Assembly (NCBI GenBank): GCA_965115855.1
Contig: OZ220470.1
Span: 1,854,318 to 1,918,317, forward strand
Direction: 5' to 3'
From: Vicinamibacteria bacterium
GTDB taxonomy: Bacteria > Acidobacteriota > Vicinamibacteria > Marinacidobacterales > Marinacidobacteraceae
DNA length: 64,000 bases
Part shown: in pieces, positions 1-58,103 of the stretch
How positions within the stretch are numbered: the stretch's first letter is position 1
Layout: every line of letters starts with the position of its first letter
Notes under the pieces: generated by a model
Told to the model about the DNA's origin: nothing
What the model saw: only the letters and a program-made list of their open reading frames with translations
The model's database searches: none
Translations under genes and position numbers: made by a program

Positions 1-1070
1 GTCCCCTTGAGGGCGCTCTCGCTGAACAGCACGCCGTTGCTCGCCACCACTCCGACCGCGATTCCGTGAATGTGGGCGAAGCCGGTCACCAGGGTGGTTC
101 CGTACCGCTCCTTGAACTCGTCGAGGCGGCTCGCATCCAGCAGCCGGGCAAGGATTTCCCGGATGTCCACGCGCACCCGCCGATCCTTCGGCATGAGCCC
201 GAGGATCTCCTCCTCGGGGTAATCGGGCGTCTCGGGATGGCGGTCGGGGAGGTCGCGCCCGCCGGCGGGGGCCAGGCGGGCGACCGAGCGGCGCAGGATC
301 CCGATGGCGTCGCGGTCGTCCTCGGCGTAGTGGTCGGCCACTCCCGAGCGCTCGGTGTGGATGCGGGCGCCGCCGAGCTCCTCGGGAGTCACGACTTCCC
401 CGGTCGCGGCCCTCACCAGCGGCGGCCCCCCGAGATGGATCGTTCCGACGCCGGCCACGATGACCGCTTCGTCGCTCATCGCCGGCACATAGGCGCCGCC
501 AGCCGTGCACATCCCCATCACCGCCGAGAGTTGCGGAATCCCGGCAGCGCTCATCACCGCCTGATTGCGGAAGATGCGCCCGAAGTGGTCGCGGTCGGGG
601 AACACCTCCGCCTGCAGCGGGAGGAACGCGCCTCCGCTGTCCACCAGGTACAGGCACGGAAGACGCGCTGCCTCGGCGATCTCCTGCGCCCGAAGGTGCT
701 TCCTGACGGTAAGCGGGAAGTAGGTTCCGCCCTTCACGGTGGCGTCATTGGCGACGACCATCGTCATCCGGCCGGAAACGACTCCGACACCGGCGACCAG
801 CCCGGCAGCCGGCGTGGCCGTGTCGTAGCAGTCGAAGCCGGCAAGCGCTCCGATCTCCAGGAACTCGGTTCCCGGATCGGTCAGCAAACGGATCCGCTCC
901 CGCACGGGGAGCTTGCCCTGCTCCCGGTGGCGCTTCCGGGCGCGCTCGCCGCCGCCTTCCGCCGCTTCGGCGCGGCGGCGGTCGAGTTCCTCGCAGAGCG
1001 CGAGATTGTGCGCCCGGTTTTCGAGGAACGCGGCGGCGCCGGTGCGGACCTGTGACTTGATGCGTGCCAA
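1..1070 (-). CDS. liuB: Acyl-CoA carboxylase carboxyltransferase (3-methylcrotonyl-CoA carboxylase beta-like), 3' end runs off window
   Basis: Manual minus-strand translation from TTG 1070: [11 protein letters not shown]...[21 protein letters not shown]...CTAGGAY...[17 protein letters not shown]. Absent from the ORF track because no stop lies within the window. Confidence 0.85.
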
Positions 1071-1456
1071 CGCCCGGATTCTACGGCGGAAAGGGCGTCT
1101 CCCGAACCCGCCCGATCGGCGACTACGAAGTGCGGTCGCCCGGATCCGCCCGCGGCGGCGACGTCTCCCCGTGGACCGCCCCGGAGGGCATCACCAGCGG
1201 GGCACGGATCCTCCACATCCGTGCGCTCCCCATCGCCCGGAACACAACACCGGGGCCACGCACGGCGGGATGATCCGGTGGCCGGAGGTCCTGGTGAGGA
1301 GGAGCGGGCCTTGTCGGGCGATTCGAGCCTGTTCCGATTTCGGACCTGCGGCGGGCCGGGGGGCTCCCGCGACGAGCCGGGATCGCTCCCTGGGCCCCGG
1401 GAACTCCCCGGGACCCATGCCGTATCGGAACCTCCCGCCCGGTCCGACCAGCGCTC

Positions 1457-1975
1457 TCAGCGCCGGAAGGAGGATTCCACGACCGGCTCGACCACCTCCC
1501 GGGCATCCCGCATGCTCGTGACGATGCCTTCGATTCGGGCGAGAGTCTCCCCGAACTCATCCATGCGCGTATCGATGCGACGTTCGAAGTCGTCGATCCG
1601 CCGTTCCAGTCCATCCAACCGCATCTCGACGGCTTCGAGGCGATGTTCGACGGCGTCGATCCGCCGTTCGACGGCGTCCAGCCGCATCTCGACGGCTTCG
1701 AGGCGGTGTTCGACAGCTTCGAGGCGGTGTTCGACGGCGTCGATCCGCCGTTCGAGAACATCGATCCGTTGTGCAAGGCGGTGTTCAACAGCTTCGATTT
1801 GCGCCCGTATATCCCGAAGGTCATCCGCGACGACCTGTTGGACCGTCCAGTGCGTCAGGGCCCCGAGAGCAGCCAGGATCCCAATGACAGCACCGACCGG
1901 AACGGCCCAATTGCGCACGGCAGCAATCACCCGGCCCGAAATCGACTCCACGCCGACCATGGCGTCCACACCCAT
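1457..1975 (-). CDS. Single-TM anchored coiled-coil repeat protein, cassette 1 (172 aa)
   Basis: GGAGG SD 7 nt before ATG; TM WAVPVGAVIGILAALGALTHW; 9 heptads + 1 hendecad in the variable stalk. Confidence 0.85.
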   Translation of the reverse strand: MGVDAMVGVESISGRVIAAVRNWAVPVGAVIGILAALGALTHWTVQQVVADDLRDIRAQIEAVEHRLAQRIDVLERRIDAVEHRLEAVEHRLEAVEMRLDAVERRIDAVEHRLEAVEMRLDGLERRIDDFERRIDTRMDEFGETLARIEGIVTSMRDAREVVEPVVESSFRR

Positions 1976-2086
1976 GACATGCCCTCCAAGGGAGGAAAGG
2001 AAGCAGAGGTCATTGTCGGGTGGGACTACCCATTCCCGTTACGGACCAGCACGATGCGCGAGGCACCATCGATCCCGCAGTGGCGA

Positions 2087-2095
2087 AGCATAACA
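2087..2095 (-). promoter_or_regulatory. Extended -10 element TGTTATGCT, one per cassette
   Basis: Matches TGnTAnnnT. Copies at 2087-2095, 2794-2802, 3480-3488, 4192-4200, 4844-4852, 5535-5543 (TGTTATGGT) and 6167-6175, each about 110-120 nt upstream of the ATG. Confidence 0.55.
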
Positions 2096-2164
2096 CCCCC
2101 GTGATCGCGGCCGCCGCCCTCTCCAGTCAGCCAACGCATGGCGCATGCACGGGGCACGCACAGC

Positions 2165-2214
2165 GAATCCTCTGCCAGCCCGACGAAGCGCTGTCAGCGA
2201 CCGGCAGAGGATTC
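2165..2214 (-). other. 12-bp inverted repeat straddling each cassette stop codon
   Basis: gaatcct(c/t)gcc-type arm ... ggc(a/g)gaggattc at 2165-2214, 2872-2933, 3551-3612, 4269-4318, 4915-4976 and 5613-5674. No U-tract. Confidence 0.6.
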
Positions 2215-2682
2215 CACGACTGGATCGACCACCTTCCGGGCGTCCCGCATGCTCGTGACCATGCCTTCGATTCGGGCGAGAGTCTCCCCGAACTCGTCCA
2301 TGCGTGTATCGATGCGACGTTCAAAGTCGTCGATGCGCGTATCGATGTGGCGTTCGAAGTCGTCGAATCGGCGTTCGAAGTCGTCCAGCCGCATCTCGAC
2401 GGCTTCGAGGCGGTGTTCGACAGCTTCGAGGCGCTGTTCGACGGCGTCGATCCGCCGTTCGAGAACATCGATCCGTTGTGCAAGGCGGTGTTCAACAGCT
2501 TCGATTTGCGCCCGTATATCCCGAAGGTCATCCGCGACGACCTGTTGGACCGTCCAGTGCGTCAGGGCCCCGAGAGCAGCCAGGATCCCAATGACAGCAC
2601 CGACCGGAACGGCCCAGTTGCGCACGGCGGCAGTCACCCGACCCGAAATCGACTCCACGCCGACCATGGCGTCCACACCCAT
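2194..2682 (-). CDS. Single-TM coiled-coil repeat protein, cassette 2 (162 aa)
   Basis: Paralog of cassette 1; stalk of 6 heptads + 2 hendecads. Confidence 0.85.
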   Translation of the reverse strand: MGVDAMVGVESISGRVTAAVRNWAVPVGAVIGILAALGALTHWTVQQVVADDLRDIRAQIEAVEHRLAQRIDVLERRIDAVEQRLEAVEHRLEAVEMRLDDFERRFDDFERHIDTRIDDFERRIDTRMDEFGETLARIEGMVTSMRDARKVVDPVVESSAGR

Positions 2683-2912
2683 GACATGCCCTCCAAGGGA
2701 GGAAAGGAAGCAGAGGTCATTGTCGGGTGGGACTACCCATTCCCGTTACGGACCAGCATGATGCGCGAGGCACCATCGATCCCGCAGCGACGAAGCATAA
2801 CACCCTCGTGATCGCGGCCGCCGCCCTCTCCCGTCAGCCAGCGCATGGCGCATGCACGGGGCACGCACAGCGAATCCTCCGCCAGCCCGACAAAGCGCTG
2901 CCCACGGCGCTG

Positions 2913-3368
2913 TCAGCGACCGGCAGAGGATTCCACGACCGGCTCGACCACCTGCCGGGCGTCCCGCATGCTCGTGACCATGCCTTCGATTCGGGCGAGA
3001 GTCTCCCCGAACTCGTCCATGCGCGTATCGATGCGACGTTCGAAGTCGTCGATCCGCGTATCGATGTGGCGTTCGAAGTCGTCGAATCGGCGTTCGAAGT
3101 CTTCCAGCCGCATCTCGACGGCTTCGAGGCGGTGTTCGAGGGCATCAAGACGATGTTCGACGGCATCAAGACGGTGTTCGACAGCGTCGATTTGCGCCCG
3201 TATGTCCCGAAGGTCATCCGCGACGACCTGTTGGACCGTCCAGTGCGTCAGGGCCCCGAGAGCAGCCAGGATCCCAATGACAGCACCGACCGGAACGGCC
3301 CAGTTGCGCACGGCGGCAGTCACCCGACCCGAAATCGACTCCACGCCGACCATGGCGTCAACACCCAT
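2913..3368 (-). CDS. Single-TM coiled-coil repeat protein, cassette 3 (151 aa)
   Basis: Paralog; 6 heptads + 1 hendecad. Confidence 0.85.
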   Translation of the reverse strand: MGVDAMVGVESISGRVTAAVRNWAVPVGAVIGILAALGALTHWTVQQVVADDLRDIRAQIDAVEHRLDAVEHRLDALEHRLEAVEMRLEDFERRFDDFERHIDTRIDDFERRIDTRMDEFGETLARIEGMVTSMRDARQVVEPVVESSAGR

Positions 3369-3591
3369 GACATGCCCTCCAAGGGAGGAAGGGAAGCAGA
3401 GGTCATTGTCGGGTGGGACTACCCATTCCCGTTACGGACCAGCACGATGCGCGAGGCACCATCGATCCCGCAGCGACGAAGCATAACACCCTCGTGATCG
3501 TGGCCGCCGCCCTCTCCAGTCAGCCAGCGCATGCACGGGGCACGCACAGCGAATCCTCCGCCAGCCCGACGAAGCGCTGCCCACGGCGCTG

Positions 3592-4080
3592 TCAACGCCC
3601 GGCGGAGGATTCCACGACCGGCTCGGCCACCTGCCGGGCGTCCCGCATGCTCGTGACGATGCCTTCAATTCGGGCGAGAGTCTCCCCGAAGTCGTCCATG
3701 CGCGTGTCGATGCGGCGTTCGAAGTCGTCGATCCGCCGTTCCAGTCCATCCAGCCGCATCTCAACGGCTTCGAGGCGATGTTCGACAGCTTCGATCCGCT
3801 GTTCGACGGCGTCGATCCGCCGTTCGAGGCGATGTTCGACGGCTTCAATTCGCCGTTCGAGACTGTGCTCGACATCGTCGATTCGCCGTTCGACGATTTC
3901 GATTTGCGCCCGTATATCCCGAAGGTCGTCCGCGACGACTTGTTGGACCGTCCAGTGCGTCAGGGCCCCGAGAGCAGCCAGGATCCCAATGACAGCACCG
4001 ACCGGAACGGCCCAGTTGCGCACGGCGGCAATCACCCGGCCCGAAATCGACTCCACGCCGACCATGGCGTCCACACCCAT
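3592..4080 (-). CDS. Single-TM coiled-coil repeat protein, cassette 4 (162 aa)
   Basis: Paralog; 6 heptads + 2 hendecads, different module identities from cassette 2. Confidence 0.85.
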   Translation of the reverse strand: MGVDAMVGVESISGRVIAAVRNWAVPVGAVIGILAALGALTHWTVQQVVADDLRDIRAQIEIVERRIDDVEHSLERRIEAVEHRLERRIDAVEQRIEAVEHRLEAVEMRLDGLERRIDDFERRIDTRMDDFGETLARIEGIVTSMRDARQVAEPVVESSAGR

Positions 4081-4297
4081 GACATGCCCTCCAAGGGAGG
4101 AAAGGAAGCAGAGGTCATTGTCGGGTGGGACTACCCATTCCCGTTACGGACTAGCACGATGCGCGAGGCACCATCGATCCCGCAGTGGCGAAGCATAACA
4201 CCCCCGTGATCGCGGCCGCCGCCCTCTCCAGTCAGCCAACGCATGGCGCATGCACGGGCACGCACAGCGAATCCTCTGCCAGCCCGACGAAGCGCTG

Positions 4298-4732
4298 TCA
4301 GCGACCGGCAGAGGATTCCACGACCGGCTCGACCACCTGCCGGGCGTCCCGCATGCTCGTGACCATGCCTTCGATTCGGGCGAGAGTCTCCCCGAACTCG
4401 TCCATGCGTGTATCGATGCGGCGTTCGAAGTCGTCGATGCGCCGTTCCAGTCCATCCAGCCGCATCTCGACGGCTTCGAGGCGATGTTCGACAGCTTCAA
4501 TCCGCCGTTCGAGGACATCGATCCGTTGTGCAAGGCGGTGTTCAACGGCATCGATTTGCGCCCGTATATCCCGAAGGTCATCCGCGACGACCTGTTGGAC
4601 CGTCCAGTGCGTCAGGGCCCCGAGAGCAGCCAGGATCCCAATGACAGCACCGACCGGAACGGCCCAGTTGCGCACGGCGGCAATCACCCGACCCGAAATC
4701 GACTCCACACCGACCATGGCGTCCACACCCAT
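4298..4732 (-). CDS. Single-TM coiled-coil repeat protein, cassette 5 (144 aa)
   Basis: Paralog; 5 heptads + 1 hendecad. Confidence 0.85.
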   Translation of the reverse strand: MGVDAMVGVESISGRVIAAVRNWAVPVGAVIGILAALGALTHWTVQQVVADDLRDIRAQIDAVEHRLAQRIDVLERRIEAVEHRLEAVEMRLDGLERRIDDFERRIDTRMDEFGETLARIEGMVTSMRDARQVVEPVVESSAGR

Positions 4733-4955
4733 GACATGCCCTCCAAGGAAGGAAAGGAAGCAGAGGTCATTGTCGGGTGGGACTACCCATTCCCGTTACG
4801 GACCAGCACGATGCGCGAGGCACCATCGATCCCGTAGTGACGAAGCATAACACCCTCGTGATCGTGGCCGCCGCCCTCTCCAGTCAGCCAGCGCATGCAC
4901 GGGGCACGCACAGCGAATCCTCCGCCAGCCCGACAAAGCGCTGCCCACGGCGCTG

Positions 4956-5423
4956 TCAGCGACCGGCAGAGGATTCCACGACCGGCTCGACCACCTGCCG
5001 GGCGTCCCGCATGCTCGTGACCATGCCTTCGATTCGGGCGAGAGTCTCCCCGAACTCGTCCATGCGCGTATCGATGCGACGTTCGAAGTCGTCGATCCGC
5101 CGTTCCAGTCCATCCAGCCGCATCTCAACGGCTTCGAGGCGGTGTTCGACAGCTTCAATCCGCCGTTCGAGGCGATGTTCGACGGATTCAATCCGCCGTT
5201 CGAGAACATCGATCCGTTGTGCAAGGCGGTGTTCAACGGCGTCGATCCGCGCCCGTATATCCCGAAGGTCGTCCGCGACGACTTGTTGGACCGTCCAGTG
5301 CGTCAGGGCCCCGAGAGCAGCCAGGATCCCAATGACAGCACCGACCGGAACGGCCCAGTTGCGCACGGCGGCAATCACCCGGCCCGAAATCGACTCCACA
5401 CCGACCATGGTGCCAACACCCAT
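4956..5423 (-). CDS. Single-TM coiled-coil repeat protein, cassette 6 (155 aa)
   Basis: Paralog; 5 heptads + 2 hendecads. Confidence 0.85.
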   Translation of the reverse strand: MGVGTMVGVESISGRVIAAVRNWAVPVGAVIGILAALGALTHWTVQQVVADDLRDIRARIDAVEHRLAQRIDVLERRIESVEHRLERRIEAVEHRLEAVEMRLDGLERRIDDFERRIDTRMDEFGETLARIEGMVTSMRDARQVVEPVVESSAGR

Positions 5424-5653
5424 GACATGCCCTCCAAGGGAGGAAGGGAAGCAGAGGTCATTGTCGGGTGGGACTACCCATTCCCGTTACGGACCAGCAC
5501 GATGCGCGAGGCACCATCGATCCCGCAGGGGCGAACCATAACAACCCCGTGATCGCGGCCGTAGCCCTCTCCAGTCAGCCCGTGCATGGCGCATGCACGG
5601 GGCACGCACAGCGAATCCTCCGCCAGCCCGACGAAGCGCTGCCCACGGCGCTG

Positions 5654-6055
5654 TCAACGCCCGGCGGAGGATTCCACGACCGGCTCGGCCACCTGCCGGG
5701 CGTCCCGCATGCTCGTGACGATGCCTTCAATTCGGGCGAGAGTCTCCCCGAAGTCGTCCATGCGCGTGTCGATGCGGCGTTCGAAGTCGTCGATCCGCCG
5801 TTCCAGTCCATCCAGCCGCATCTCGACGGCTTCGAGGCGGTGTTCGAGGGCATCAAGACGGTGTTCGACGGCGTCGATCCGCGCCCGTATATCCCGAAGG
5901 TCGTCCGCGACGACCTGTTGGACCGTCCAGTGCGTCAGGGCCCCGAGAGCAGCCAGGATCCCAATGACAGCACCGACCGGAACGGCCCAGTTGCGCACGG
6001 CGGCAGTCACCCGACCCGAAATCGACTCCACACCGACCATGGCGTCCACACCCAT
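5654..6055 (-). CDS. Single-TM coiled-coil repeat protein, cassette 7 (133 aa)
   Basis: Shortest paralog; 5 heptads. Confidence 0.85.
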   Translation of the reverse strand: MGVDAMVGVESISGRVTAAVRNWAVPVGAVIGILAALGALTHWTVQQVVADDLRDIRARIDAVEHRLDALEHRLEAVEMRLDGLERRIDDFERRIDTRMDDFGETLARIEGIVTSMRDARQVAEPVVESSAGR

Positions 6056-6291
6056 GACATGCCCTCCAAGGAAGGAAAGGAAGCAGAGGTCATTGTCGGG
6101 TGGGACTACCCATTCCCGTTACGGACCAGCACGATGCGCGAGGCACCATCGATCCCGCAGTGGGCAAGCATAACACCCCCCGGTGGGGTCGGGATTCCGG
6201 CCCCGTTCCCGCGCGCGGCATGCAGCCCGCCAGTCCACCGATGAAATCGGCATTCGGGCCAGGCGCCGGCCCCATGTGTTTCCATACCCGC

Positions 6292-7437
6292 ATGACCTGC
6301 CTCCGATCCCCCCTGCTGCCCGGCCTGCTCGCTGCCACGCTCCTCCACTGCGGCGGTTCCGAACCCGCTCCCGACGCGGACGACCCGATCGACCGTTTCG
6401 ATCGGGCGGTGGCGGCATTTCCCCGGGTGGACCTGGCCCACCTGCCGACCGCGCTCGACGAGATGCCGGCGCTCGCCGCCGAGCTGGGCGGGCCGCGACT
6501 CTTCGTGAAACGCGAGGATCTGACCGGTCTGGCGTTCGGCGGGAACAAGGCACGGAAGCTGGAATTCATCCTTGCCGACGCCGTGGAAAAGGAGAGCGAC
6601 TCGGTCCTTACCTGGGCCGGGGTCCAGTCCAACTGGGCACGGATGACCGCCGCCGGCGCCCGGAACCTGGGGTTGCAGCCGATCCTGGTGCTGCAGCGGG
6701 CCGAGCACCAGACAGTCAACCCGGCGGACGGCAACCTGCTGCTCGACCGCATCCTGGATGCGGACGTCCGCCTCCTCGAACCGGGTGACGACCGGGAGGC
6801 CGCGGTGGACCGGATCGCCGAAGCGGAGATTGCCGCCGGGCGCAAGCCCTATGTGGTGGCCGTCGGCGGCTCGCGGACCGGACATTCGATGGATCGCCCG
6901 CTCGGGGCAGTGGCCTACGCGCAGGCGTTCCGCGAGCTGATCGAACAGGCGCGGCAGCTCGGGATCCGGCCCACCCACATTGTCCACGCATCCGGCTCGG
7001 GCAGCACCCAGGCCGGATTCGTGGTGGGTGCGCGGGCACTCGCTCCCGAAGTGCGGGTGATCGGAATCTCCACCGGCGGGACCAAGGAAGCCAGCGAAGC
7101 CAACGTTCTTGCCATCGCCCGCGGCACGGCGGAGGCGATGGAGCTGGATATCGCAATCGGGCCGGACGACGTCGTGGTGATGGACGACTGGGTGGGTGAG
7201 GGATACGGCATCCTGAACGCCAGCATCGTGAGCGCCATCGCGCAGGTCGCGCGGACCGAGGGGCTGCTGCTGGACCCGGTCTACACCGGGAAAGCCATGG
7301 CGGGCCTGCTGGATCTGATCCAAGGCGGCGATCTCGGAAGTGACGAGACCGTGGTCTTCATCCACACCGGCGGCACGCCGGCGCTCTTCCCGTACCGCGA
7401 GGGATTGCTCGACGGACTGGCCGAATCGGGATCCTGA
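6292..7437 (+). CDS. dcyD: D-cysteine desulfhydrase/ACC-deaminase family PLP enzyme with signal-like N-terminal extension
   Basis: KREDLTGLAFGGNKARKLEF (PLP Lys), QSNW, SGSGSTQAG, LDPVYTGK, HTGG. Start placed at ATG 6292 because the ORF-track start at 6100 lies inside the array. Confidence 0.85.
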   Translation: MTCLRSPLLPGLLAATLLHCGGSEPAPDADDPIDRFDRAVAAFPRVDLAHLPTALDEMPALAAELGGPRLFVKREDLTGLAFGGNKARKLEFILADAVEKESDSVLTWAGVQSNWARMTAAGARNLGLQPILVLQRAEHQTVNPADGNLLLDRILDADVRLLEPGDDREAAVDRIAEAEIAAGRKPYVVAVGGSRTGHSMDRPLGAVAYAQAFRELIEQARQLGIRPTHIVHASGSGSTQAGFVVGARALAPEVRVIGISTGGTKEASEANVLAIARGTAEAMELDIAIGPDDVVVMDDWVGEGYGILNASIVSAIAQVARTEGLLLDPVYTGKAMAGLLDLIQGGDLGSDETVVFIHTGGTPALFPYREGLLDGLAESGS

Positions 7438-7476: not shown

Positions 7477-7723
7477 CGGTCGGGCGCAGGAGTGCGGAAG
7501 CCAGTGCGGAAGCCAGCGCCCGGGCGCCTCGCGGGCCCCTTCGTACCCCGGGGGACCGCCGTTTCGGTCAAGGATGGGGCCCGCCCGCATCCGATCATGA
7601 TCCGGGACCCCATCGCGGAAGATCGTCCCGTGGCAAACTCGGCCGGCGCCCGCATCCCGGAGAAGGGAACCCGTCAAGTCGGGCGGTCCCTCCCGCGGGT
7701 TCCCATCAGTTCGGAGTCTTGTC

Positions 7724-8809
7724 ATGCCCAGTGCCGATAACACCGTCCCCCCGGTGACCCCCGCCACCCTGGACCGCGCCATTGCCGGTTTCCCGCGGCG
7801 GGACTTCGCCCTGCTGCCCACTCCCCTGGAGGAGTTGCCCCGCCTCTCCCGCGCCCTCGGCGGGCCCCGGATCCTCGCGAAGCGCGATGACATGACCGGA
7901 CACGCGCTCGGCGGCAACAAGGCGCGCAAGCTCAGCTACATCCTCGCCGACGCCGAGTCCAGGGGCGCCGACACCATCGTGACCTGGGCCGCCGTCCAGT
8001 CCAACTGGGTGCGCATGACCGCGGCCGGCGCCCGCCGGCTCGGCATGCGGCCGGTGGCCGTCCTGCATCCGCGGATCGTCCAGGCCTCGGATCCGGCCGA
8101 CGGAAACCTGCTGCTCGACCGCATCCTCGGCGCGGACGTCCGGATCATCGACCCGGAAGGCGACTGCGTGGCGGAGGCCGGACAGGTGGTGGAGGAGATC
8201 CGGGCGAAGGGCGGCAAGCCCTACGTCGTGCCCGTTGGCGGATCGGGTGTCTCCGGCTCGATGGAAACCCCGCTCGGCGCGATTTCCTATGTTGCGGCGT
8301 TCCGGGAACTGCTGGCACAAACGGAAGAGCGCAGCGGGCGGCCCACCCACGTGGTGCATGCGTCCGGCTCGGGGAGCACCCAGGCCGGCCTCGTCGTCGG
8401 AGCGCGCGCCCTCGCCCCGGACGTGCGCATCCTCGGCATCGGCACCGGGCGGAGGAAGGTGGAAGCGGAAGCCAACATCCTCAAAATCGCCCGGCAGGCA
8501 GCAGCCGCGCTCGAACTGGACCTGGAAGTCCGGCCGGAGCACGTGGAGGTGAACGAGGACTACATCGGGCGCGGCTACGGCCACCTCAACCGCTCGGTGG
8601 TGGAGGCCATTGCCACCATGGCGCGCACCGAAGGCATCTTCCTCGACCCGGTGTATTCCGGCAAGGGGATGTCCGGCCTCATCGATCTCATCCGCCGGGG
8701 CGCGTTCCGGCCTGACGACACGGTCGTCTTCGTCCACACCGGCGGCACTCCGGCGCTCTTCCCCTACAAGGAGGAGATCCTGCGGGACCTCCCGCCGGAC
8801 CGCTTCTGA
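7724..8809 (+). CDS. dcyD: Second D-cysteine desulfhydrase family PLP enzyme (no signal)
   Basis: KRDDMTGHALGGNKARKL, QSNW, SGSGSTQAG, LDPVYSGK, HTGG. Confidence 0.88.
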   Translation: MPSADNTVPPVTPATLDRAIAGFPRRDFALLPTPLEELPRLSRALGGPRILAKRDDMTGHALGGNKARKLSYILADAESRGADTIVTWAAVQSNWVRMTAAGARRLGMRPVAVLHPRIVQASDPADGNLLLDRILGADVRIIDPEGDCVAEAGQVVEEIRAKGGKPYVVPVGGSGVSGSMETPLGAISYVAAFRELLAQTEERSGRPTHVVHASGSGSTQAGLVVGARALAPDVRILGIGTGRRKVEAEANILKIARQAAAALELDLEVRPEHVEVNEDYIGRGYGHLNRSVVEAIATMARTEGIFLDPVYSGKGMSGLIDLIRRGAFRPDDTVVFVHTGGTPALFPYKEEILRDLPPDRF

Positions 8810-8888: not shown

Positions 8889-10250
8889 ATGAAATCCATC
8901 GCTCTCGAGGATTTCCGCTGCTTCCGCAAGAAGCAGAACGCGCGCCTTGCGCCGGTCACGCTGCTGGTGGGCGACAACAGCACCGGCAAGACGTCCTTCA
9001 TGGCCATGATCCGGGCGCTCGGTACGATGCTTCACGAAAACCGGATGCCCGACTTCAAGGAGGATCCCTACGACCTCGGCAGTTTCGAGGACATCGCACA
9101 TCACCGCGGTCGTCGGGGGAGCCGCGCCTCGTCGTTTTCGGCGTGGCTGGATCTGGACCTGCCGCCGCCTGACGAAGAACCGCAGACCAACATCGAGAGA
9201 ACGACGGGAACCGGAATGCCGAGCCGTTTCTCCATGAGGTTCGGACCGGGTGGAGCCGCTCCGGTTCCGAGTTCGTGGCGCTTGGAGCATGATTACTTCC
9301 GGATGGAAATGAACTGGGAGGAACACGAGATTGAACTTGGCCTTTCCGGACATTCCTGGAAGGTCGACTTCAGGCAACGCGCGCGCCTGATCGATTCCGT
9401 TCAGGACACAATGGGACCGCTTCGTTCCATCGGACTCGTACTCGATAACGCAAAGGACGAAGACATTGTGTCTGTTGCCGGCTCGGATTCCGTTCCCAAG
9501 AGTCGTCTGGCAATCCATGTCCGCTCCCTGTTCCATTCCTGCACCCGCTTGCGGGCGCCCCATGCAAGCGCACCCGTGCGTTCCCGGCCCCGCCGCACCT
9601 ACGACCCGGCTCGTCCCGATCACGACGCGGAGGGTCGATCCATTCCGGTGTACTTGTTGGAAACCCACTCGAAACAAGGCACGAACTGGAGCTCCCTGAA
9701 GGAGAAACTGGAAACCTTCGGCCGCGGCTCGGGTCTGTTTGATGAAATCGAGGTCAAGCGGATGGGAGCGAAGGGCAGCGATCCCTTCCAGTTGCACCTC
9801 CGAAGATCCCGGAAGCGAGGCGAGCGACGGAAGGGCCCCCGGCGCAATCTGATCGATGTCGGTTACGGCGTCAGTCAGGTGCTGCCGATCCTGGTCGAGA
9901 TGCTCCGCGATGATGCGCCGTCGGGTTTTCTCCTGCAACAACCCGAGGTGCATCTCCACCCGAGCGCACAGGCCGCGCTGGGAAGCCTGTTCTGCGAGGT
10001 GGCGGGATCGGGTCGGCAACTCATCATCGAGACACACAGCGATCACCTGGTGGATCGCGTGCGGATGGATGTGCGGGACGGGAAAGGCAAGCTGACCCCG
10101 GAGGATGTGTCAATCCTGTTTTTCGAACAGATCGAACTGGATGTCAAGATCCATTCCATTCGCCTTGATAACGAGGGGAATGTGCTGGATGCACCCGATA
10201 GCTACCGGAAATTCTTCATGCAGGAAATAAATCGTTCTCTCGGATTCTGA
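8889..10250 (+). CDS. ABC-type (AAA_15/AAA_21-like) ATPase with DUF3696-like C-terminus
   Basis: Walker A GDNSTGKT, signature DVGYGVSQVLP, Walker B/D-loop LLQQPEVHLHP, H-loop ETHSDH. Confidence 0.8.
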   Translation: MKSIALEDFRCFRKKQNARLAPVTLLVGDNSTGKTSFMAMIRALGTMLHENRMPDFKEDPYDLGSFEDIAHHRGRRGSRASSFSAWLDLDLPPPDEEPQTNIERTTGTGMPSRFSMRFGPGGAAPVPSSWRLEHDYFRMEMNWEEHEIELGLSGHSWKVDFRQRARLIDSVQDTMGPLRSIGLVLDNAKDEDIVSVAGSDSVPKSRLAIHVRSLFHSCTRLRAPHASAPVRSRPRRTYDPARPDHDAEGRSIPVYLLETHSKQGTNWSSLKEKLETFGRGSGLFDEIEVKRMGAKGSDPFQLHLRRSRKRGERRKGPRRNLIDVGYGVSQVLPILVEMLRDDAPSGFLLQQPEVHLHPSAQAALGSLFCEVAGSGRQLIIETHSDHLVDRVRMDVRDGKGKLTPEDVSILFFEQIELDVKIHSIRLDNEGNVLDAPDSYRKFFMQEINRSLGF

Positions 10251-49561: not shown

Positions 49562-49850
49562 CGCGCCGGGGGGAAGCCCGTGATGGGGAAGGGCACGCCA
49601 CCGTCCCCTGCTCGGTGCTGCGCGCCCGGGACGGGGGCCGTCGGAAGCAGCGGGCGCGTGGAGAATTGACGTCCGAAGGGGAACGGCCGGATGCCCCCGG
49701 GACTTCCCGCCGATCCGGACTCGGGCGACGGCTCCGGTTCTCCGAAGCCGGCGCGCCGGAAACCGGACTCGTTCGCGCCCCGCGGCGCGTCGCCGGAGTC
49801 GCGTTCGCATCCCGCAACAGAGCCCGGTAGGATCGTCCCGCACTCCGCAT

Positions 49851-49866
49851 CACTGGCATGCCAGTG
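49851..49866. promoter_or_regulatory. Perfect 16-bp palindrome, operator-like
   Basis: cactggcatgccagtg, downstream of TAGGAT (49828-49833) and 47 nt before the receptor ATG. Confidence 0.5.
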
Positions 49867-49913
49867 TTCGGAAGTCCCTTTCCTTTTTCATTCCCCCACC
49901 CGAAGGAGGGACC

Positions 49914-52811
49914 ATGAGACGAGCTTTTTTCGCATTCCTGTGCGTTTTGCTTGCCGGGCCGGCGCTCGGCCAGCAGCAGTACGGACGACTCCAGGGGTCG
50001 GCGCTTGACGCCCAGGGGCTTGCCCTGCCGGGAGTGACCGTCACCCTCGCGGGTGACGCGATCATCGGATCGCGAACGGCTGCCACCGACGTGGACGGGT
50101 CGTACCGGTTCCAGGCACTGCCTCCCGGCGACTACACCCTGACGTTCGAACTCAGCGGTTTCCAGACCGTGGTCTTCGAGGAGATCCGCGTGGTCACCGG
50201 CGCCACCTTCGAGGTGGACGCCAACATGCAGATCGCAACGGTGGCCGAAACGATCACGGTGACCGGCGAATCACCGGTCGTGGACGTGAAGTCCACGGGG
50301 GTTGCCGCCACGTTCGATGACACCCAGCTCGACGAAGTTCCGACCGCAACCGACATGTGGGCGGTGCTCCACCAGAGCCCCGGCGTGCGGGTGAAGGGCG
50401 TCGACGTCGGAGGTTCCCACAAGAGCCAGCAGTCCACCTACGAGACGTTCGGCGTCCGCAGCCAGAACCGGGTTCTCTACGAGGGGGTAAACACCACCGA
50501 GGGAACCGGCTCCGCGGGCGGCTATTACGACTACTACGCGATGGAGGAAATGCAAGTTGCGGCGCAGGGAGCGGACGTCGAGATGTCCACTCCGGGAGCG
50601 CAGATCCAGACGACGGTAAAGAGCGGCGGCAATGAGTTCTCCGGCCTCGAGAGCGGCGCCTGGAACCCGGCCGACCTGATCGCCGAGAACATCGACAGCG
50701 ATCTCGAAGCCCGCGGCGGCACTCCCTCGCCGGTGGTCCAGTTCTACGAGTTCCACGTTGACCTCGGCGGCCCGATTGTCCGCGACAAGGCCTGGTTCTA
50801 CGGCGCGTACAACAACTTTTACATCGACACGGTGATCTCCGGCCAGGATCCGAACATCGCCACCGATATCGGCGACTTCGACATCTTCACGGCCAAGGTG
50901 AATTACCAGATCACCGAGCGCGACCAGTTCATCGGGTTCTCGACCTGGTCCTGGAAGCGGAAACCAAACCGGTCGCTCTCGGTACAGATCCCGGCGGAGT
51001 CGGTACTCGCCCAGGACTACTGGATCTGGCTGCACAAGGCCGAGTGGCAACGGGTCTGGAGCGACCGCCTCTACAGCAACGTCATGGTGGGGCACATGGG
51101 AACCACCTGGCCGATGGTGCCGAAGGCGGACCCGATCGACGGCAACGAGCCGCGGATCAATCTCGCCACCAACGTGCGTTCGGGAGCCGGCTGGCAGCCG
51201 TTCACCCGGAACCGGTGGAAGCCGCAGAGCACCGGCCAGTTCAACTACTACGTGCCGCTCGGCGGCAGCAGCCACGACTTCAAGTTCGGCTGGGACTGGC
51301 AGATCGACTCCGAGATGTCCGGGTGGAACACGAACTCCGGCGCCATCCGGTACCGGGACGACCCGTCGCAGGGCCGGCCCCGCAACGTGCATCAGGTGGA
51401 TGTGTTCGGGGTTCCCAACCTGGTGGACAACCGGAATCAGCACGTGGACTTCTTCGCCCAGGACGTCTGGACGGTCAACGACCGCCTGACGCTGATGGCC
51501 GGTTTCCGCGTGGGCAGCCAGATACTGGCCTACCTCGAATCCGACAACTCGCCGGGAAGCGCGTGCCAGGACGCCTTGGCCTGTCAATTCGAATTGCCGC
51601 AGAATCAGACCCAGATACTGCAGCAGGTCTTCGGAACCGGGGGCGTGACCCCGGGAGATACGGTGTTCACGCACTGGAACGTCGCCCCCCGGGTCGGGCT
51701 CACCTACGACCTCACCGGCGAGGGTTCCACGGTCTTCAAGACCTACTTCGGGCGGTACTACTCGAACGTCGGCACCGGACTCGGCACGGCGAATCCCGGC
51801 GGACAGCCCGACGCCCGCTACGAATTCCTCGACCAGAACGAGAACGGGGTACTGGACAATTTTTCCGAGCTCGGCCAGCAGCTCTCCTTCACGGCGGGCG
51901 CCGGATCAGGAAATACCACTCCGATCGATCCGAATTGGACCCTTCCGTATGCCGACGAGGTCAGCGCCGCGTTGGAACACGAGCTCACCACCGACCTCGG
52001 AATGCGTGCCTCCTATGTGTACAAGCGGATGCGGAACACCTGGAGCCGCTACGACCAGGTGGACGCGCTGAACCGGAACACGCCGATCACGATCCCCACG
52101 TGCGATGGCTGCCCTGCCGGGTACGAACGGTCGTTCAACCTTCTCCTCTATCCCGAGGAGATGGTGGGCAAGAACGACAACCTGACCACCAACCATCCCG
52201 CCGGCGAGAGCGACATGGATTTTCACACTGTCTCGCTCGGGATCAACAAGCGGTTCCGGAACAACCTCTTCTACAACGTCTATTTCGACTACCAGTGGCG
52301 TTCGGAGCCTCGCAGCCCTCAAAGTTCCGCAACAGCCTGGGATGCGACCAGTCCGTTGAGTTCGGATCCCACCGCCCAGGGTTGGTTCATCAACTATGAC
52401 CAGGACATTCCGACGGTCCAGGAAACATCGACGTACCAGTTGAAGGCGGCGGCCCGCTACGTACTCCCACACGAGATCGGCCTCGCCGGCACGTACCGCT
52501 ACATCAGTGGCTGGAACTACGCGCCCATCCATCGGAACACCGTCTATGACGGTCGGGTTGAGGTGTATTCCTGGCTCGGGTTGATGAACGAGAATCGTTC
52601 GGACAACGTCACGATGATCGACTTGCGGGCCGACAAATCGTTCGCACTCAGCGACAGAATGAACTTCCAACTGATCGTGGACGTCTTCAACGCCTTGAAT
52701 GCAAACACCATCGTGAACTTCCAGCTGATCGACTCGGTGGATCCCTATCAACGGGTGGTCGAATACCTGAAGGGGCGAACCATCGGGTTTTCCGGGAGGT
52801 TGACCTTCTGA
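49914..52811 (+). CDS. TonB-dependent receptor with carboxypeptidase-regulatory-like N-domain (Oar-like)
   Basis: Signal peptide, G.L.G...D.QG..LPGV, ETITVTGESP, plug and barrel, C-terminal F; GGAGG SD. Confidence 0.93.
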   Translation: MRRAFFAFLCVLLAGPALGQQQYGRLQGSALDAQGLALPGVTVTLAGDAIIGSRTAATDVDGSYRFQALPPGDYTLTFELSGFQTVVFEEIRVVTGATFEVDANMQIATVAETITVTGESPVVDVKSTGVAATFDDTQLDEVPTATDMWAVLHQSPGVRVKGVDVGGSHKSQQSTYETFGVRSQNRVLYEGVNTTEGTGSAGGYYDYYAMEEMQVAAQGADVEMSTPGAQIQTTVKSGGNEFSGLESGAWNPADLIAENIDSDLEARGGTPSPVVQFYEFHVDLGGPIVRDKAWFYGAYNNFYIDTVISGQDPNIATDIGDFDIFTAKVNYQITERDQFIGFSTWSWKRKPNRSLSVQIPAESVLAQDYWIWLHKAEWQRVWSDRLYSNVMVGHMGTTWPMVPKADPIDGNEPRINLATNVRSGAGWQPFTRNRWKPQSTGQFNYYVPLGGSSHDFKFGWDWQIDSEMSGWNTNSGAIRYRDDPSQGRPRNVHQVDVFGVPNLVDNRNQHVDFFAQDVWTVNDRLTLMAGFRVGSQILAYLESDNSPGSACQDALACQFELPQNQTQILQQVFGTGGVTPGDTVFTHWNVAPRVGLTYDLTGEGSTVFKTYFGRYYSNVGTGLGTANPGGQPDARYEFLDQNENGVLDNFSELGQQLSFTAGAGSGNTTPIDPNWTLPYADEVSAALEHELTTDLGMRASYVYKRMRNTWSRYDQVDALNRNTPITIPTCDGCPAGYERSFNLLLYPEEMVGKNDNLTTNHPAGESDMDFHTVSLGINKRFRNNLFYNVYFDYQWRSEPRSPQSSATAWDATSPLSSDPTAQGWFINYDQDIPTVQETSTYQLKAAARYVLPHEIGLAGTYRYISGWNYAPIHRNTVYDGRVEVYSWLGLMNENRSDNVTMIDLRADKSFALSDRMNFQLIVDVFNALNANTIVNFQLIDSVDPYQRVVEYLKGRTIGFSGRLTF

Positions 52812-57896: not shown

Positions 57897-58103
57897 CGCG
57901 CGCTCGGCTTCGGAAACTTGAACCGGTAGGCTGCCCGTTTCCGGCGGGTCGCCATGCTGGTATTTCGGAAGCTGTTTTGTTTCTCCAAGTTAAGCGGAGC
58001 GAAAGGCCACGTGGAATTCAACTCTCCACCGTGGCCCACCTGTTGCGTTTAACAGGGGAACTTCCATTTCCATGCTTCCGATCCCCAAGGAGGACCAAGC
58101 AGC

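Follow-up and report, generated by a model that had tools for sequence, protein, structure and literature searches.

What is a tandem, size-variable gene family doing on the chromosome of an environmental bacterium? Such recombining families are well known in small-genome host-associated bacteria, where they serve antigenic variation. We analysed a 64,000-nucleotide (nt) stretch of contig OZ220470.1 from a Vicinamibacteria bacterium (hereafter the window), in which seven small genes, cassettes c1 to c7, lie head to tail and encode predicted membrane-associated coiled coils with stalks of different lengths. The array looks like a recent tandem amplification and not like a programmed variation system. 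We put a probability of roughly 0.6 on the account as a whole, in which a gene was amplified in tandem, its copies recombined, and each copy is independently expressed, under translational gating, as a periplasmic stalk. The evolutionary and anatomical parts of this account are well supported; the topology of the product, the independent transcription of the copies, the gating, the dosage rationale and any cellular role are inferred.

Organization of the array

A 300-nt repeat family identified by the repeat finder occurs in seven copies at 94–98% identity, with start-to-start spacings of 707, 686, 712, 652, 691 and 632 bp (Table 1). Seven copies of this similarity and regular spacing cannot have arisen by chance. 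An original prediction, made from the letters of the window, had described seven head-to-tail units of 632–712 bp, and the repeat spacings match it exactly. The list of open reading frames (ORFs) likewise returns all seven cassette ORFs intact on the minus strand, with different stalks (products of 133–172 amino acids, aa), in the order c7 to c1 in the direction of transcription.

In the direction of transcription, each unit consists of a −10-like TATGCT motif, a leader, the ORF, a helix at the stop codon, and a spacer of ~75 nt that contains a second palindrome. The leader, Shine–Dalgarno sequence, N-terminal hydrophobic helix and C-terminal cap are near-identical among the copies, as had been noticed, with a diverged C terminus in c1. 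At the upstream edge, similarity begins just before the TATGCT of c7 (about 6182), and at the downstream edge it ends after the stem–loop of c1 (1427). MAFFT pointed to a possible eighth unit past c1 (1230–1456), either a degenerate cassette or the remnant of a leader, for which nhmmer gave no support. The guanine–cytosine (GC) content is 0.64 in the array versus ~0.69 in the flanks. Judged by this layout, the cassettes are self-contained units.

Table 1 Features of the cassette array, with positions counted from the first letter of the window (CDS, coding sequence)
Feature	Positions	Strand	Description	Basis
Whole array	1427..6182	-	seven head-to-tail cassettes	300-nt repeat family, ORF list, intergenic alignment boundaries
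c7 CDS	5654..6055	-	133 aa, shortest stalk	ORF list, protein alignment
c6 CDS	4956..5423	-	155 aa	ORF list, protein alignment
c5 CDS	4298..4732	-	144 aa	ORF list, protein alignment
c4 CDS	3592..4080	-	162 aa	ORF list, protein alignment
c3 CDS	2913..3368	-	151 aa, with extra DFERRFDDFERHIDT module	ORF list, protein alignment
c2 CDS	2194..2682	-	162 aa, with extra DFERRFDDFERHIDT module	ORF list, protein alignment
c1 CDS	1457..1975	-	172 aa, longest stalk, diverged C-terminal tail (SSFRR) and 3′ flank	
c7 leader	6056..6172	-	TATGCT (6172-6167) to ATG; predicted helices P1-P3 and terminal hairpin pairing GGAGG and AUG	
c6 leader	5424..5540	-	-10-like motif is TATGGT	
c5 leader	4733..4849	-		
c4 leader	4081..4197	-		
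c3 leader	3369..3485	-		
c2 leader	2683..2799	-		
c1 leader	1976..2092	-	TATGCT 2092-2087, GGAGG 1987-1983, ATG 1975-1973	
c7 3′ stem–loop	5613..5674	-	over stop codon, 12 bp, variable pair C-G	
c6 3′ stem–loop	4915..4976	-	variable pair U.G	
c5 3′ stem–loop	4269..4318	-	12 bp perfect, variable pair U-A, loop shorter by 12 nt	
c4 3′ stem–loop	3551..3612	-	variable pair C-G	
c3 3′ stem–loop	2872..2933	-	variable pair U.G	
c2 3′ stem–loop	2165..2214	-	variable pair U-A, short loop	
c1 3′ stem–loop	1427..1478	-	10-bp version GGAAUCCUCC/GGGAGGUUCC, one mismatch, flank otherwise diverged	read directly from sequence
Second palindrome	5579..5601	.	CCCGTGCATG-CGC-CATGCACGGG in spacer, perfect only after c7	

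Coding strand

Plus-strand ORFs of 195–263 aa (e.g. 2020–2811, 263 aa) overlap every unit in the ORF list, and one could take these for the true genes, or the whole region for non-coding repeat DNA. The public record gives this reading some footing: the public protein collection, which includes the contig, contains exact matches to the products of c6, c4, c3 and c1 and none to those of c7, c5 and c2, as if the gene caller had chosen otherwise. The minus-frame products, however, have homologs at 46–55% identity in one other genome and form a coherent protein of a hydrophobic helix followed by heptads, with a GGAGG Shine–Dalgarno sequence 7 nt before the ATG in every copy. GC by codon position in the minus frame is about 0.77/0.42/0.72, and the first 177 nt of the seven genes contain 13 variable sites, eight of which are synonymous minus-frame third positions. 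Codon-position GC, third-position variation, homologs and GGAGG together show that the minus-frame genes are real and under purifying selection. The long antisense ORFs over each unit are explained by the high GC (0.64–0.69), and such shadow ORFs are routine in high-GC genomes; since minus-frame third positions coincide with their first positions, we read the plus-strand ORFs as shadows. That the wrong strand has been chosen here is extremely improbable. Three of the seven cassettes (c7, c5 and c2) are probably miscalled in the deposited annotation, perhaps as plus-strand shadow ORFs such as 2020–2811, 4185–4850 and 5468–6244.

Stalk repeats and exchange between copies

In the protein alignment, residues 1–57 and the final ~50 residues hardly vary, and the seven products differ in length solely by insertions or deletions (indels) of 7 or 11 residues. 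The stalks are strings of the heptad R-[ILF]-[DE]-x-[VLF]-E-[HRMQ] with occasional four-residue stutters (RLAQ, RLER, SLER, HIDT, RIDT), and thus a mixture of heptads and hendecads. Tandem Repeats Finder reports periodicities of 21, 33, 42 and 63 nt inside the genes. The length span of 39 residues (133–172 aa) corresponds to about 6 nm of helix.

Variant sites across the seven copies are distributed as a mosaic. Over the leader and N terminus the closest pairs are c3 with c2 (98.7%) and c4 with c1 (98.3%), and over the C terminus and trailer they are c5 with c2 (97.0%) and c6 with c4 (95.8%). Because the pairs change along the unit, a single duplication tree cannot explain the array. Recombination between copies, which the original prediction had assumed, is borne out by these differing similarities of the 5′ and 3′ halves, and the alignments indicate that the copies exchanged segments by gene conversion or unequal crossing-over. 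The C terminus and trailer of c1 share only 73–78% identity with the other copies; this edge copy has escaped homogenization at its outer end, as expected under concerted evolution of a tandem array.

The same variants bear on whether the array is real. A long-read metagenome assembler could have concatenated strain length alleles or a mis-resolved repeat: the source is a metagenome-assembled chromosome of 3.02 Mb, graph assemblers classically struggle with units of ~0.7 kb at 85–99% identity, and the family occurs as single copies in the one other genome that has it. Against this, no two cassettes combine their leader, stalk and trailer variants in the same way, every ORF is intact, and all six junctions are regular. 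Stitched strain alleles would not normally recreate identical spacer junctions. The array is also, at 4.7 kb, shorter than typical long reads. We consider an assembly artefact quite unlikely.

3′ stem–loops and spacers

An inverted repeat had been predicted at the 3′ end of each unit. It is present in all seven, as a 12-bp helix (GAAUCCUCYGCC/GGCRGAGGAUUC) in c2–c7 and a 10-bp version in c1. In c2–c7 the 5′ arm is formed by the last codons and the stop codon lies in the loop. Across the alignment 95% of cells are paired, versus 43–57% in slid controls, and the one variable position of the helix is filled by C-G, U-A or U.G, each in two copies (Table 1). A scan for intrinsic terminator consensus sequences performed no better than on shuffles. 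At the second palindrome, the spacers other than that of c7 differ through base substitutions and through the number of copies of a 7-nt CATGCGC unit. A 12-nt indel between CAGCGC direct repeats also distinguishes spacers, and both kinds of length change have the sequence signature of slippage-type events.

A conserved leader

The ~117-nt leaders are 95–99% identical between the seven copies and differ at 12 scattered positions only. The −10-like TATGCT lies 117 nt upstream of the ATG and in most copies follows TGn, which gives it an extended −10-like appearance. The promoter-like motif of the original prediction is upheld to this extent; a sigma-70 consensus promoter scan did not call TATGCT, with results no better than shuffles. 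The longest runs near the leaders (G5, G4 or an interrupted GAGGG) are upstream of the −10-like motif.

Unnoticed in the original prediction, the leader is a conserved, putatively structured element that recurs in the other genome bearing the family, a Candidatus Marinacidobacterium sp. metagenome-assembled genome (MAG) with two genes, P0005 and P0006. Approximately 125 nt upstream of both Marinacidobacterium genes align with the window leaders, and between these two loci similarity starts just upstream of TATGCT. With the leader alignment as query, nhmmer recovered the seven cassettes (E about 1e-43 to 1e-45) and, at 3e-30 and 1e-25, both Marinacidobacterium genes, and no further leader in the window or in the other loci analysed. 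The conserved blocks are TATGCTTC, GCGG, GTCCGTA(A/G)CGGG, TCCC, CTG(C/T)T(T/C)CC and TGGAGG(G/A)CA(T/G)G(T/C)CATGGG. An upstream ORF starting at the ATG within TATGCTTC was considered as a leader peptide; it is present in all three lineages, with its length (21, 23 and 9 codons), frame and peptide unconserved. We read this ATG-containing motif as a putative −10 element and not as a start codon.

RNAalifold and single-sequence folds agree on four predicted elements. The first is a stem of GCGG(G/A) with UCCGU, and the second (P2) is an enclosed hairpin that occupies the same place in both lineages with wholly changed sequence and loop: 7 bp and a pentaloop in the window, 5 bp and a GAAA tetraloop in Marinacidobacterium. 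The third element is a further hairpin, on CGGG/CCCG. The fourth, the terminal hairpin, is long and pairs GGAGG to a pyrimidine-rich strand and the AUG region to an AUGAC-type strand. Over the 23 pairs of the CGGG/CCCG and terminal hairpins, 97% of cells in the nine leaders are paired, with two compensatory pairs (A-U to G-C and C-G to U-A), versus 38–52% paired and no compensatory changes in slid controls for this 3′ region. As modelled, the leader hairpin is predicted to occlude the ribosome-binding site and start codon, an arrangement that a translational-control leader such as an RNA thermometer or a riboswitch-like expression platform would have.

No Rfam 15 covariance model matched anywhere in the window at gathering thresholds, and none matched at E≤1 in 1000–6600. 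The leader pattern GTCCGTARCGGG..CTGYTYCC..TGGAGG had two matches in Joint Genome Institute (JGI) metagenomes, both by chance, inside a luciferase-like monooxygenase ORF (nhmmer E=8). A shortened pattern had eight matches in viral contigs, one of which nhmmer reported at E=1.2 and the other seven not at all. Conserved in sequence across species and paralogs, and outside any described RNA family, the leader is a candidate new regulatory RNA.

The protein product

Searches of Pfam, NCBIfam, PHROG, PADLOC, PDB and Rfam gave no convincing match. Pfam returned dozens of sub-threshold coiled-coil matches; DUF7310 (PF23991) scored 40.8 bits with c3 against a gathering threshold of 40, and 26.0–37.9 bits with the other six, covering the repeats only. 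Families such as DUF1640/CCDC90 and XhlA had been named for comparison; XhlA (PF10779) stayed below threshold, with a best score of 23.5 bits against a cutoff of 34.7, and no curated family was convincing. NCBIfam and PADLOC yielded only sub-threshold coiled-coil noise (SMC, Rad50, JetC, LmuB), and a PDB sequence search only tropomyosin, reovirus sigma-1 and designed coiled coils. Among the PHROGs, phrog_12015 (9e-12) and phrog_1009 (7e-9, spanning the hydrophobic helix) matched, both of unknown function.

AlphaFold2, given a shallow family alignment, predicts one uninterrupted helix over residues 2–123 and a disordered 10-residue tail (predicted local distance difference test, pLDDT, 78). The N terminus, MGVDAMVGVESISGRV, is followed by a hydrophobic segment of 20 residues (24–43, AVPVGAVIGILAALGALTHW), and a conserved distal module, RIDDFERRIDTRMDEFGETLARIEGIVTSMRD, lies downstream of the stalk. 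The N-flank of the hydrophobic segment has two Arg in the window proteins and five K/R with no acidic residue in P0005, and the C-flank is acidic. Under the positive-inside rule, a basic N-flank and acidic C-flank suggest an N-in/C-out topology, so that the coiled coil likely resides on the periplasmic side. The hydrophobic segment may serve as a signal anchor or, given the A-x-(G/S) near its end in all three lineages (read by eye), as a cleavable signal peptide. The products contain no Cys, almost no Lys, and 3–5 His at the outward-facing heptad f position.

Distribution and relatives

With c7 as query, a word-seeded search of 5.8 billion clusters recovered the window paralogs and a single further protein, P0005. 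An exhaustive HMMER family-profile search of 1.84 billion representatives returned 2464 proteins at E≤0.001, in which full-length matches were confined to three clusters (the window's, P0005 and P0006) and the remainder matched the repeats only; a second profile search, on 90% clusters, had the same outcome. P0005 (139 aa) and P0006 (147 aa) are the only two full-length relatives among about 15 billion proteins. There was no convincing family match either, and the view of the original prediction that the system had not been described before stands. In the species-representative genomes of GTDB, a scan found the P0005 locus, a repeat-only match in a Sulfurimonas MAG and nothing else, and no protein relative was found in 2.9 million viral contigs. 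On these sequence searches, the genes form a genuine, very narrowly distributed orphan family that is amplified in one genome. Distant proteins of the same layout, an N-terminal hydrophobic helix with xVDxRF heptads, are P0082, P0099, P0124 and P0128; P0082, P0124 and P0128 are single genes in unrelated contexts.

P0005 and P0006 are single genes ~0.8 Mb apart in one closed 2.86-Mb MAG (Acidobacteriota, Vicinamibacteria). P0006 lies between MatE transporter and S9 peptidase genes. P0005 ends 9 nt before a CcdA (DsbD_TM) gene, followed by cytochrome c and TlpA-like redoxin genes on the same strand (L001 10001–12115, OZ241856.1). These neighbours could hint at a link to periplasmic redox or cytochrome maturation, at one locus only. 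No neighbour gene is common to the three loci (array, P0005 and P0006), and context gave no functional clue. A literature search on Marinacidobacterium found no paper.

The window QueA shares 81% identity with its counterpart in the Marinacidobacterium MAG, and for a 2.91-Mb and a 2.35-Mb genome the values are 77% and 71%, respectively; by this sequence measure, the window genome is a close relative of the MAG. The BCAA-ABC/YebC/RuvCAB/MutS2/QueA/RidA block is syntenic with relatives. In the 2.91-Mb relative (L016) the PALP gene that borders the array is directly followed by a NUDIX gene, and no array is present at the corresponding site, which makes the array a lineage-specific expansion in a core chromosomal neighbourhood. 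In the Marinacidobacterium MAG the region past RidA is rearranged and rich in insertion sequence (IS) elements, and the flank of the RuvC–QueA block appears to be a rearrangement hotspot in this lineage. In that MAG, RidA is followed by a BNR/sortilin-like gene and a hypothetical gene, and past these, at roughly the array position (L015 15563–21035), lie two ISL3-family and two IS5-like (DDE_Tnp_1) transposase genes.

Comparison with known systems

In the vlp locus of Mycoplasma hyorhinis as many as seven genes follow one another in tandem, their 5′ regions conserved and their product sizes varied by in-frame intragenic repeat indels (PMC3569356). The array shares both features, having tandem genes behind a conserved 5′ region and in-frame intragenic repeats that give size variants, and its mosaicism shows that the copies recombine. 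Vlp proteins are lipoproteins, and they are switched on and off via a homopolymeric promoter tract. If the array worked in this way, each cassette would flip on and off at high frequency, and changes in stalk length would alter the cell surface and help the bacterium to evade immune systems, phages or predators. The original prediction drew the analogy, which holds for tandem arrangement and variable size and breaks down elsewhere. None of the seven products has a lipobox or Cys; no homopolymer or short-repeat tract differs among the seven leaders, which show scattered point changes only; and the array contains neither a hypermutable tract nor IS elements. Among the larger ORFs scanned over the 64 kb (not every small ORF was included), there was no integrase, transposase, invertase or reverse transcriptase, in agreement with the prediction that none is adjacent, and no other recombinase. 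No tRNAs were found. Unlike in vlp, the repeats are coiled-coil heptads and hendecads, and the host is a diderm environmental Acidobacteriota relative of a free-living type, not a host-restricted mollicute; here the product would probably sit in the inner membrane or be set free from it, and not be surface-exposed. A relative, moreover, has two fixed single copies. We regard programmed variation of the vlp type as unlikely. The roles that the original prediction had put forward, as molecular rulers, in surface variation or in phage interaction, would be guesses, and of the present results only the likely N-in/C-out orientation bears on them.

The Bdr proteins of Borrelia are multi-copy small proteins of unknown function, whose imperfect direct repeats vary in number between paralogs and strains (PMC3303823). 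The array is likewise a multi-copy family in which internal repeat number differs between paralogs. Bdr proteins are anchored in the inner membrane and have a helical repeat region. Unlike the array, bdr genes are dispersed on plasmids and prophages, the anchor is C-terminal and no structured leader has been described, and the two families have no sequence relationship. The array is a member of neither vlp nor Bdr, though alike as a recombining family with repeat-length variation.

XhlA, phage 'hemolysin' PHROGs and DUF7310 have heptads of the array's type (xVExRLD) in small membrane-associated coiled coils. The XhlA and DUF7310 matches exclude the conserved N-terminal helix and C-terminal module of the array proteins, and the hydrophobic helix of XhlA is C-terminal. 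P0154, P0157, P0159 and P0011, from other bacteria, have a DUF1640-like N terminus (judged by eye) and DAVEHRL repeats nearly identical to the array heptad; these are single genes for proteins with a soluble N-terminal domain and a C-terminal anchor, and they lack the constant parts of the array proteins. Together with P0155 they contain 8–15 near-perfect DAVEHRL/DGVEHRL heptads, with lengths of 173, 180, 188 and 194 aa between close relatives. Since heptad number differs between such close relatives, this repeat DNA is generally length-unstable.

In layout the array product also recalls two envelope proteins. An i-spanin (Rz) has an N-terminal inner-membrane anchor and then a periplasmic coiled coil whose distal end makes the contact, and in Braun lipoprotein (Lpp) coiled-coil length sets an envelope distance. 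The array product may have a comparable layout, with a predicted N-terminal hydrophobic helix and a coiled coil of ~90–130 residues that would be periplasmic; unlike an i-spanin, it comes without sequence similarity, partner lipoprotein, or holin or endolysin gene. No spanin PHROG was among the matches of the array proteins, and the matched families are of unknown function or 'hemolysin'.

Could the array then be a phage or mobile-element remnant, either a set of XhlA- or spanin-like lysis accessory genes or an integron-like array that lacks an integrase? The best profile matches are to phage families (phrog_12015 and phrog_1009), weak XhlA matches and the spanin-like architecture point the same way, the GC of the array is below that of its flanks, and a gene for an NsnB-like defence-type ATPase lies 3 kb away. 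The XhlA scores nevertheless fall short of the cutoff and its anchor is at the other end of the protein, no holin, endolysin, capsid, integrase or transposase gene was seen nearby among the ORFs scanned, and viral contigs contain no relative. The array does not qualify as an integron or as a cluster of attC sites lacking an integron-integrase (CALIN) either: attC cores (GTTRRRY/RYYYAAC) were found in none of the six spacers and no recombinase domain in the ORFs scanned, and paralogous cassettes with their own leaders are unlike integron cassettes. With core housekeeping genes, syntenic with relatives, all around, such an origin is very unlikely.

A model for the origin and working of the array

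We propose that a stand-alone gene with promoter, leader, ORF, 3′ stem–loop and spacer (about 0.65–0.7 kb) would have duplicated in tandem, and that unequal homologous recombination would have multiplied this unit to seven copies. Ongoing exchange or gene conversion would keep the leader, N-terminal helix and C-terminal module 95–99% identical, and inside the ORF the 21-nt (heptad) and 33-nt (hendecad) repeats would recombine or slip, which would add or remove coiled-coil units in frame and give stalks of 133–172 aa. The copies are probably expressed individually, each from its own signals, and translation initiation may be gated by whatever melts or opens the leader hairpin. The product would be one long alpha-helix on the periplasmic side of the inner membrane, probably oligomerizing as a coiled coil, with a distal module that probably makes a functional contact. 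With expression signals for every copy, the array probably multiplies output about seven-fold, and the net effect would be this increase in gene dosage together with a population of stalks of mixed length. Our best guess is a translationally gated stalk protein on the periplasmic side, whose gene was multiplied to raise dosage and whose varied lengths would be a consequence or an added benefit.

Several observations weigh against this account. Copy number and order rest on the assembly. The spacer between copies has no recognizable counterpart outside the array, which blurs the exact original duplication unit. The scan found no sigma-70 promoter, and polycistronic read-through from a single upstream promoter is possible. 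Folding-energy z-scores are weak for window leaders (−0.2, −1.2) and, at −3.7 and −1.65 for the two Marinacidobacterium leaders, strong for one copy only, and the two compensatory pairs come from just three independent lineages, with the structure derived from the same sequences. The dosage argument is by analogy, and the length differences would be compatible with neutral or selected change.

A bolder version of the account would make the array a length-graded set of periplasmic stalks with a shared distal binding module, co-regulated by an undescribed temperature- or ligand-sensing leader RNA, in which recombination continually makes new lengths and copy numbers. We think this improbable; if true, it would be an adjustable repertoire of envelope spacers or tethers in a free-living diderm, with a new class of cis-regulatory RNA limited to this family.

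The simpler account of tandem amplification has implications of its own. That the architecture of antigenic-variation families is found in environmental Acidobacteriota, without a switch and with a probably periplasmic protein, suggests that it may arise from repeat-prone coiled-coil genes under dosage selection. The array is a natural allelic series of coiled-coil lengths, which could be used to ask whether stalk length matters in the envelope, and the leader, being small (~117 nt) with a clear predicted expression platform, is suited to heterologous reporter work. In practice this is limited by an uncultured organism and a family in two genomes only, and because the architecture has ordinary evolutionary explanations, we consider the interest of the locus moderate.

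Neighbouring genes

The array is flanked by a carboxyl-transferase gene (3–1190, minus strand) and a PALP-family enzyme gene (6220–7437, plus strand). Both flanking genes had been predicted, the second as a desulfhydrase, an assignment that stands to superfamily level only. A second, paralogous PALP gene is adjacent to the first (7724–8809, plus strand), the pair resembling 1-aminocyclopropane-1-carboxylate (ACC) deaminase or D-cysteine desulfhydrase. The first of these genes has an N-terminal extension resembling a lipoprotein or secretion signal (…LLPGLLAATLLHCGG…), and a perfect 12-nt tandem repeat (AGTGCGGAAGCC, 2.2 copies) occupies 7491–7516 in the gap between the two. In L016 the PALP pair is not contiguous, with MacB-like and ankyrin-repeat genes lying in between.

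A plus-strand gene (8889–10250) located after the second PALP gene and before RidA encodes a 453-aa AAA_15/AAA_21 ATPase with a PADLOC match to NsnB (3e-47). It is not at this position in L016 and looks like an inserted defence-type gene. Farther along the window are two large paralogous outer-membrane beta-barrel genes (49584–52811 and 58053–61022, both plus strand), TonB-dependent-receptor-like with CarboxypepD_reg N-terminal domains and, at 0.58–0.59, a lower GC1 than other genes. The interval between the two contains genes for a TPR/multihaem cytochrome and an AAA_16 ATPase.

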